Assembly (NCBI GenBank): GCA_021513715.1
Contig: CP084167.1
Location: forward strand, 256,001-320,000
DNA: 64,000 bases
Reading direction: 5' to 3'
Source: Candidatus Heimdallarchaeum endolithica
GTDB lineage: Archaea > Asgardarchaeota > Heimdallarchaeia > Heimdallarchaeales > Heimdallarchaeaceae
The notes under the pieces were generated by a model. That model did not search any database and was not told the origin of the DNA. It saw only the letters and a list, made by a program, of their open reading frames with translations. Shown here piece by piece: positions 55,444 to 56,293 of the stretch (position 1 is its first letter; every line of letters starts with the position of its first letter). A program made the position numbers and the translations under genes.

Positions 55444-56293
55444 TGTATACTCCACGCACGTTGGTAAGAAATAAATAGGAAGTGGGTTATGTGGATAAGT
55501 AATAAAACATGAATAAACCCGAACGTAACCTAGAGACTAAGAAAGATTGTGGTTAAAAAAGCTTTGGAAGGAAAAAGGAGAAGATAAAAGAAGTAGCTCA
55601 CAGGTTTATGGTGTATAGGAAGCTTAGATATAAATGGATGGAAAAAGTTAAATTAAAAACTTGAATAAGAATAAGGAAAGGTAGATCTTCCAGACTAAAA
55701 TATACAAAAAAAGTAGATGAAGTGTTAAAAGGAGGATAAGGGAGCTAAGGGTAAAACAAGAAATGAACGTGGAGAAGAAAATAGCTTAACTATTGAAGAA
55801 AGAAGGAAAAAACATTATCCTGAAATGCAATAACTAAAGTAATAGACGAATTAGGTTTTCTTCTGTTAAGTAATAAGAAAAAGAGAAACAGGACTCGATA
55901 CAAGAGATTTGAGCGCTTATCTCCTAACGAACTCTGGTAGTTAGATGGGAAAGGATAATTCTGGGTAGAAGAAAAAGGATAGATTATATCGACTCCTCAT
56001 AACTCTCTTAGATGATCACTCACGATTCTGTCTAGGAGCTAAATCCACCTTAATCTGTATTTTAATATTGGCACAAATATTAATGGTGTTAGTGATCACT
56101 CACGATTCTGTCTAGGAGCTAAATCCACCCCTTTACACCGAAAAAAGAACAGATAATAAGTTTTCTAGAAGAAACAATAGAGAAATATATACAGCTTGAG
56201 TCTATCCTCACAAACAATGGAGCACTCTTCTCCACCGTTAGAGGAACTAGATTCAATTTTTCAAACATATGTTGCTTTTCTTGGAGAATAACA
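55444..56293 (+). mobile_element. Decayed IS481-like element (copy 2)
   Basis: Colinear with copy 1, with the same ends and the same W*LDG stop, plus an 80-bp duplication/insertion. Confidence 0.8.
56013..56129. repeat. 37-bp perfect direct repeat flanking a 43-bp insert
   Basis: tgatcactcacgattctgtctaggagctaaatccacc at 56013-56049 and 56093-56129; single diverged copy in IS copy 1. Confidence 0.9.

Follow-up and report, generated by a model that had tools for sequence, protein, structure and literature searches.

Introduction

CRISPR integrases can insert spacers outside their arrays. In Escherichia coli, off-target integration by the type I-E Cas1-Cas2 complex produces neo-CRISPR units (Nivala, Shipman and Church 2018, via bioRxiv 10.1101/148544 and PMC6698737); as far as these sources convey that work, its natural evidence is circumstantial only and comes from two other species. 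The off-target sites used in vitro by the Cas1-Cas2 complex of Pyrococcus furiosus are enriched in G1, T2, A6 and T25 of 30 positions (PMC6698737). Among type III-A systems, adaptation in Streptococcus thermophilus is independent of a PAM and prefers DNA that forms hairpins (PMC8860593), and the Cas1-Cas2 complex of Thermotoga profunda is promiscuous without HU (PMC13769266). The integration reaction itself is thus known, mainly from laboratory experiments in E. coli (Nivala 2018) and in vitro with the proteins of P. furiosus and T. profunda.

Here, we describe a structure of this kind in the genome of Candidatus Heimdallarchaeum endolithica, an Asgard archaeon whose chromosome was assembled as one contig of 3,326,783 bp with 30.8% GC. 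It lies at 56013-56129 of the analysed stretch of 64,000 bp, hereafter the window, which corresponds to 312,013-312,129 in genome coordinates. Searches for CRISPR terms in the text of PMC8813620, the likely source of the assembly, returned no mention of such scars. We argue from sequence comparisons that the scar was very probably made by off-target, full-site spacer integration by the type III-A Cas1-Cas2 complex of the host, a reading to which we give a probability of about 0.93. To the known reaction our analysis adds the timing of this scar, a rejection of its origin by fold-back copying, the bases common to several targets, and a contrast between self and non-self inserts.

Results

Geometry of the scar

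A preliminary description of the region had reported an exact 37-bp duplication around 43 bp of novel sequence, and this holds to the base. Identical 37-mers occupy 56013-56049 and 56093-56129, on either side of a 43-bp insert (56050-56092), and the bases just beyond both 37-mer ends differ. When the scar is read on the minus strand, in the orientation that resembles the type III-A repeat of the host, the copy at 56093-56129 is the leader-side pseudo-repeat, with G1 at 56129, and the copy at 56013-56049 is the spacer-distal one. The empty allele, with one copy of the target and no insert, is found at 26 other, paralogous IS sites of the genome and in copies of the sister species, rather than in the direct ancestor of the interrupted copy. 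The 26 sites include the neighbouring copy 1, for which the preliminary description had already noted a single copy without an insert; the 37-mer starts there at 53447.

A dead IS481 relic as target

The sequence that hosts the scar is a relic of an IS481-family transposase (copy 2, 55444-56245, plus strand) with about ten indels, a stop and a truncation. Intact members of the family encode a transposase of 312 aa, which scores above the cut-off of NF033577. In copy 2, an in-frame stop replaces the codon after the W of WQID, immediately ahead of the first catalytic aspartate motif, and the relic ends near residue 226 of 312, before the glutamate motif. Copy 1 (52868-53600, plus strand), which lacks the insert and provides a local empty-site control, has the same stop and truncation, together with a 4-bp insertion that is found in both copies. 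These common lesions imply that the relic was dead before the unit of IS and LRR sequences was duplicated. Furthermore, a 1-nt deletion private to copy 2 occurs in both 37-mers, so this frameshift is older than the insertion and a pseudogene was the target. The idea that the insertion killed the transposase is therefore ruled out, copy 2 being already truncated and multiply frameshifted, and the emphasis initially placed on the active site was misplaced. The DHSRFCLGA segment encoded by the duplicated sequence, which had been assigned to the catalytic core, does lie inside the rve domain, but it contains no catalytic residue and lies outside the DDE triad; we take it to lie between the WQID and ILTDN aspartate motifs.

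The scar is contained in a nested cassette of IS, IS481 relic, LRR and MITE sequences of about 6 kb (52767-58796). This cassette is absent from the sister species, is flanked by a 9-bp target duplication (8 of 9 bases identical), and has a clean empty site at 86,432-86,440 of the sister genome. The LRR gene on the minus strand (56335-58182) ends 206 bp upstream of the scar in that orientation. No terminator-like site was found between the two, and read-through transcription of the scar from this same-strand gene is possible.

Origin of the insert

The 43-mer occurs only once in the 3.33-Mb genome, even when nine mismatches are allowed. Its GC content (23%) is near the low end of that of array spacers, and it contains four open frames. 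No donor was found in the genome itself or among 259 array spacers, nor, with up to three mismatches, in the sister species and 46 other genomes of the order. Exact and wobble-position patterns had no credible match in IMG/VR, where matches to 18-mers extended to only 25-28 of the 43 positions. JGI metagenomes gave two matches of 30/43 in contigs with 41-43% GC, which we judged to be due to chance, GTDB gave no credible donor, and the best match in INPHARED had an E value of 0.2. Searches by tblastn with the peptides of the four open frames gave no credible donor either. Most array spacers are likewise without a match in the host genome, and the 43-mer presumably came from foreign or since-lost DNA. 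Because no protospacer was found for it, the capture of a DNA fragment is shown for sister scars (see below) and not for the focal one.

CRISPR systems of the host

Two arrays of the genome, with 116 and 77 copies of a 37-bp repeat, hold spacers that range from 37 to 45 bp, and 8 of these 191 spacers are 43 bp long. The duplicated target thus has the length of the resident repeat, and the insert falls inside the range of the spacers. The first of these arrays follows a type III-A operon in which cas10, csm2-5, cas6, cas1, cas2 and cas4 are all intact ORFs and whose Cas1 retains the E, H and D/E catalytic positions. The concern, raised at the outset, that the host might lack cas1 is put to rest by these intact cas1 and cas2 genes. 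Two other arrays have 30-bp repeats, with spacers mostly of 36-37 bp, and go with type I-B-like operons. Among the CRISPR systems of the host, the 37/43 geometry fits only the type III-A one, and the 37-bp ruler hence points to the type III-A module as the enzyme, not to the 30-bp type I-B modules. The 37-bp repeat of this system was not found in the 46 other genomes of the order, and it is absent from the complete genome of Ca. H. aukensis.

Other features of these systems deserve mention. Two unassigned genes (L005:12782-15358) separate cas6 from cas1 in the type III-A operon; they encode a 494-aa protein with multiple HTH and a 311-aa DUF2797-like protein, and are candidate adaptation regulators or fidelity factors. 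The cas1 of the third system, which has a 30-bp repeat, is in two pieces (L009:804-1792), yet its array has 19 exact repeats. Orphan units of two repeats, with the 30-bp type I-B repeat, are found at 2,085,675 and 2,117,967, the latter with its own leader-like sequence. Finally, a type I-B spacer matches genome positions 3,792-3,827 (35/36) and a type III-A spacer matches positions 10,225-10,264 (34/40); the region may be an integrated element targeted by CRISPR.

Sister scars

We scanned the genome for isolated exact direct repeats of at least 20 bp, with a gap of at least 10 and a period of at most 250. Only eight were found: five with CRISPR geometry, the two orphan CRISPR units, and one 23/181 pair in a region of protein repeats. 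Such scarcity argues that the focal structure did not arise by chance. A relaxed scan (three mismatches in 28 bp) revealed no further, older scars. The search for similar scars that the preliminary description had recommended thus yielded three more of the 37-class, at 441555 (target and insert of 37/39), 948726 (36/41) and 1260940 (38/39, resolved by its donor to 37/40), and one of type I-B size at 1839783 (31/33 or 30/34; L012:2284-2378).

Two of these scars have identifiable donors. The insert at 948726 is a 100% copy of a cysteine-desulfurase-like gene 0.9 Mb away, and that at 1260940 is a 100% copy of the pyruvate kinase gene 1.7 Mb away. Neither has flanking homology, and exact distant copies of this kind are the signature of fragment capture. 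Both are antisense to their source genes in the repeat-like orientation, and the two self protospacers have no convincing common flank that would suggest a PAM. Self inserts are thus present in two of four scars, whereas among the 191 spacers of the type III-A arrays none has a chromosomal match of 90% identity or more (Fisher P=0.0003). The self inserts would be autoimmune if they were processed, a consideration that speaks for silent scars and agrees with the counter-selection of self spacers in type III-A systems (PMC8860593).

The scar at 1839783 interrupts an amidohydrolase-like gene. In the sister species, this gene is continuous at the same place and the site is empty. The target of the scar begins with GTT, and A6 is present together with a T at the sixth position from the end; the scar was probably made by a type I-B integrase. 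For the scars at 441555 and 948726, the sister species yielded no orthologous empty site. In the insert at 441555 (genome position 441,592; L010:2093-2131), the first 21 bases match positions 1,161,980-1,162,000 exactly and the remainder does not, reflecting either a chance match in A-rich sequence or a prespacer of chimeric origin.

Choice of targets

The focal target, read on the minus strand, agrees with the type III-A repeat at 8 of its first 11 positions (P=0.004) and at 17 of all 37 (P=0.03), with a global score that is also significant (P=0.009), and it has an internal match to the repeat of 11/12 bases that is shifted by 3 nt. G1, A6, A10 and T32 are common to the repeat and all four targets of the 37-class (permutation P=0.0066, with free orientation), a consensus drawn from four sites that were oriented by best fit. 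The summed identity of these targets to the first ten bases of the repeat is higher than expected (P=0.0003). When the focal target is left out, the other three define positions 6, 10, 32 and 36, of which the focal target has three. As T32 is A6 of the opposite strand, the element is symmetrical about both attack sites. The G1/A6/A10/T32 consensus is weak, since about 47,500 genomic positions carry it. We also considered mimicry of the leader, which was rejected because identity to it (3/10 and 9/40) is at background level.

Some observations concern the IS481 family at large. On the minus strand, the unhit site of copy 1 (53447-53483) has 20/37 bases in common with the type III-A repeat, more than the hit site has. 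Of the six positions at which this unhit site departs from the nearest IS subfamily, five bring it closer to the repeat, a post hoc observation. Nineteen of the 26 other IS481 copies retain G1/A6/A10/T32, most retain the internal 11/12 match, and about 12 encode intact, nearly identical transposases. One might speculate that a mimic of the type III-A repeat is built into the family, which would be recurrently hit off target by Cas1-Cas2 and able to spread seeds of new arrays, and that the scars are an unselected pool of Asgard type III-A acquisitions, about half of them self. We regard this broader scenario as rather unlikely.

Discussion

Our results favour ectopic spacer acquisition, the leading hypothesis of the preliminary description, on the grounds of the intact cas1, the 37-bp repeat, the spacer lengths, a single-copy insert without a local template, and the sister scars. 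The type III-A Cas1-Cas2 complex, loaded with a 43-bp prespacer, would have docked on a repeat-like 37-bp stretch of the dead IS481 relic and attacked the two strands 37 bp apart; gap repair would then have duplicated the target around the insert.

The alternative that fares best, which we nevertheless deem very improbable, is a templated insertion, where break repair or template switching at a fork re-copies the target and the insert comes from local inverted copying (fold-back). The hairpin that had suggested this idea is present, as a perfect 8-bp inverted repeat inside the insert (56062-56069 and 56076-56083), and it is uncommon, the like being found in 1 of the 191 spacers of the arrays and in 1% of random 43-mers. 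The resemblance that had been claimed between the right end of the insert and the inverse of the repeat end is not significant: 97 of 191 control spacers reach it, and 24 of 191 still do so once the junction is taken into account. All that remains in favour of an origin by repair is the slipped microhomology at one junction, where the four terminal bases of the insert match the left flank of the target with a 1-nt slip, as do 18 of 382 controls (about 5%). Yet, alignments of the insert with flanks of 40, 100 and 300 bp, on both strands, are matched or beaten by 182, 191 and 185 of the 191 control spacers, respectively, so that the insert is not derivable from its surroundings any better than spacers are. 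Fold-back copying also has no 37-bp ruler, and would leave unexplained three scars of the same size, two of them with distant exact donors. The hairpin fits capture and needs no fold-back, because type III-A adaptation prefers hairpin-forming DNA (PMC8860593), and it may have favoured the capture of the 43-mer.

Still less probable is the suggestion that the scar is an attL/attR remnant of an internally deleted element, or that a tiny element of MITE or casposon type inserted here and duplicated a long target. Direct repeats of such length are indeed left by integrase-type elements, and IS and MITE relics abound in the region, but the insert is single-copy, its inverted repeats are internal instead of terminal, and each scar has a different insert. 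Normal excision, moreover, leaves a single att site behind instead of two. All cas1 matches of the genome adjoin CRISPR arrays, with no sign of a solo casposase among them. An assembly or polishing artefact, which the repetitive block of IS and LRR sequences might invite, is just as improbable, since it would neither yield novel sequence with CRISPR geometry five times nor put the private 1-nt deletion in both copies, and since the likely source assembly, as described in PMC8813620, combined Nanopore with about 88x of 150-bp Illumina reads, long enough to span the feature.

If the scar results from off-target spacer integration, it does not seem to have become a working CRISPR unit. It has no leader and no ATTGAAAT handle, the 5-bp stem of the repeat is not formed, and the 3' handle differs. 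These traits indicate a product of adaptation, yet no functional array. Any read-through would not be expected to produce crRNA, the scar is probably silent and neutral, and its insertion in a dead IS was probably harmless.

Taken as a set, the scars show that products of off-target spacer integration do reach fixation in wild archaeal genomes and that they can disrupt genes, as at 1839783. The bases G1, A6, A10 and T32 offer a first in vivo hint of what the type III-A integrase of an Asgard archaeon recognises. Silent scars are not exposed to autoimmune selection and so display what is captured before it acts, and a systematic census of scars would make the self/non-self bias of natural naive adaptation testable.

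The known systems resemble this one to different degrees. The target-site duplications of IS481 transposons come to mind because the host sequence of the scar is an IS481 transposase relic, but here the IS is the target and not the agent, and 37 bp greatly exceeds an IS duplication (9 bp for the neighbouring IS). Type III-A adaptation in S. thermophilus (PMC8860593) and T. profunda (PMC13769266) is similar in its independence from a PAM, broad spacer sizes, preference for hairpins and counter-selection of self spacers. These are, however, bacterial experiments, and the type III-A locus of Heimdallarchaeum also encodes Cas4. The P. furiosus complex performs full-site integration at repeat-length spacing, at sites that are about 43-46% identical to the repeat, and the Heimdallarchaeum targets resemble these sites in G1, in A6 and in the T at the sixth position from the far end (PMC6698737). 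They differ from them in having A10 in common and no common leader-side base, and the ruler is one of 37 bp acting on the chromosome in vivo, in contrast to one of 30 bp acting on a plasmid in vitro (PMC6698737). The neo-CRISPR units of E. coli, as portrayed in the sources cited above, have the same repeat-length duplication around a spacer-length insert, outside arrays and at a repeat-like site. The scars of Heimdallarchaeum differ from these type I-E units in being natural, in arising without forced overexpression in an Asgard archaeon, in following a type III-A geometry of 37 bp, and in that several of them are fixed in one genome.
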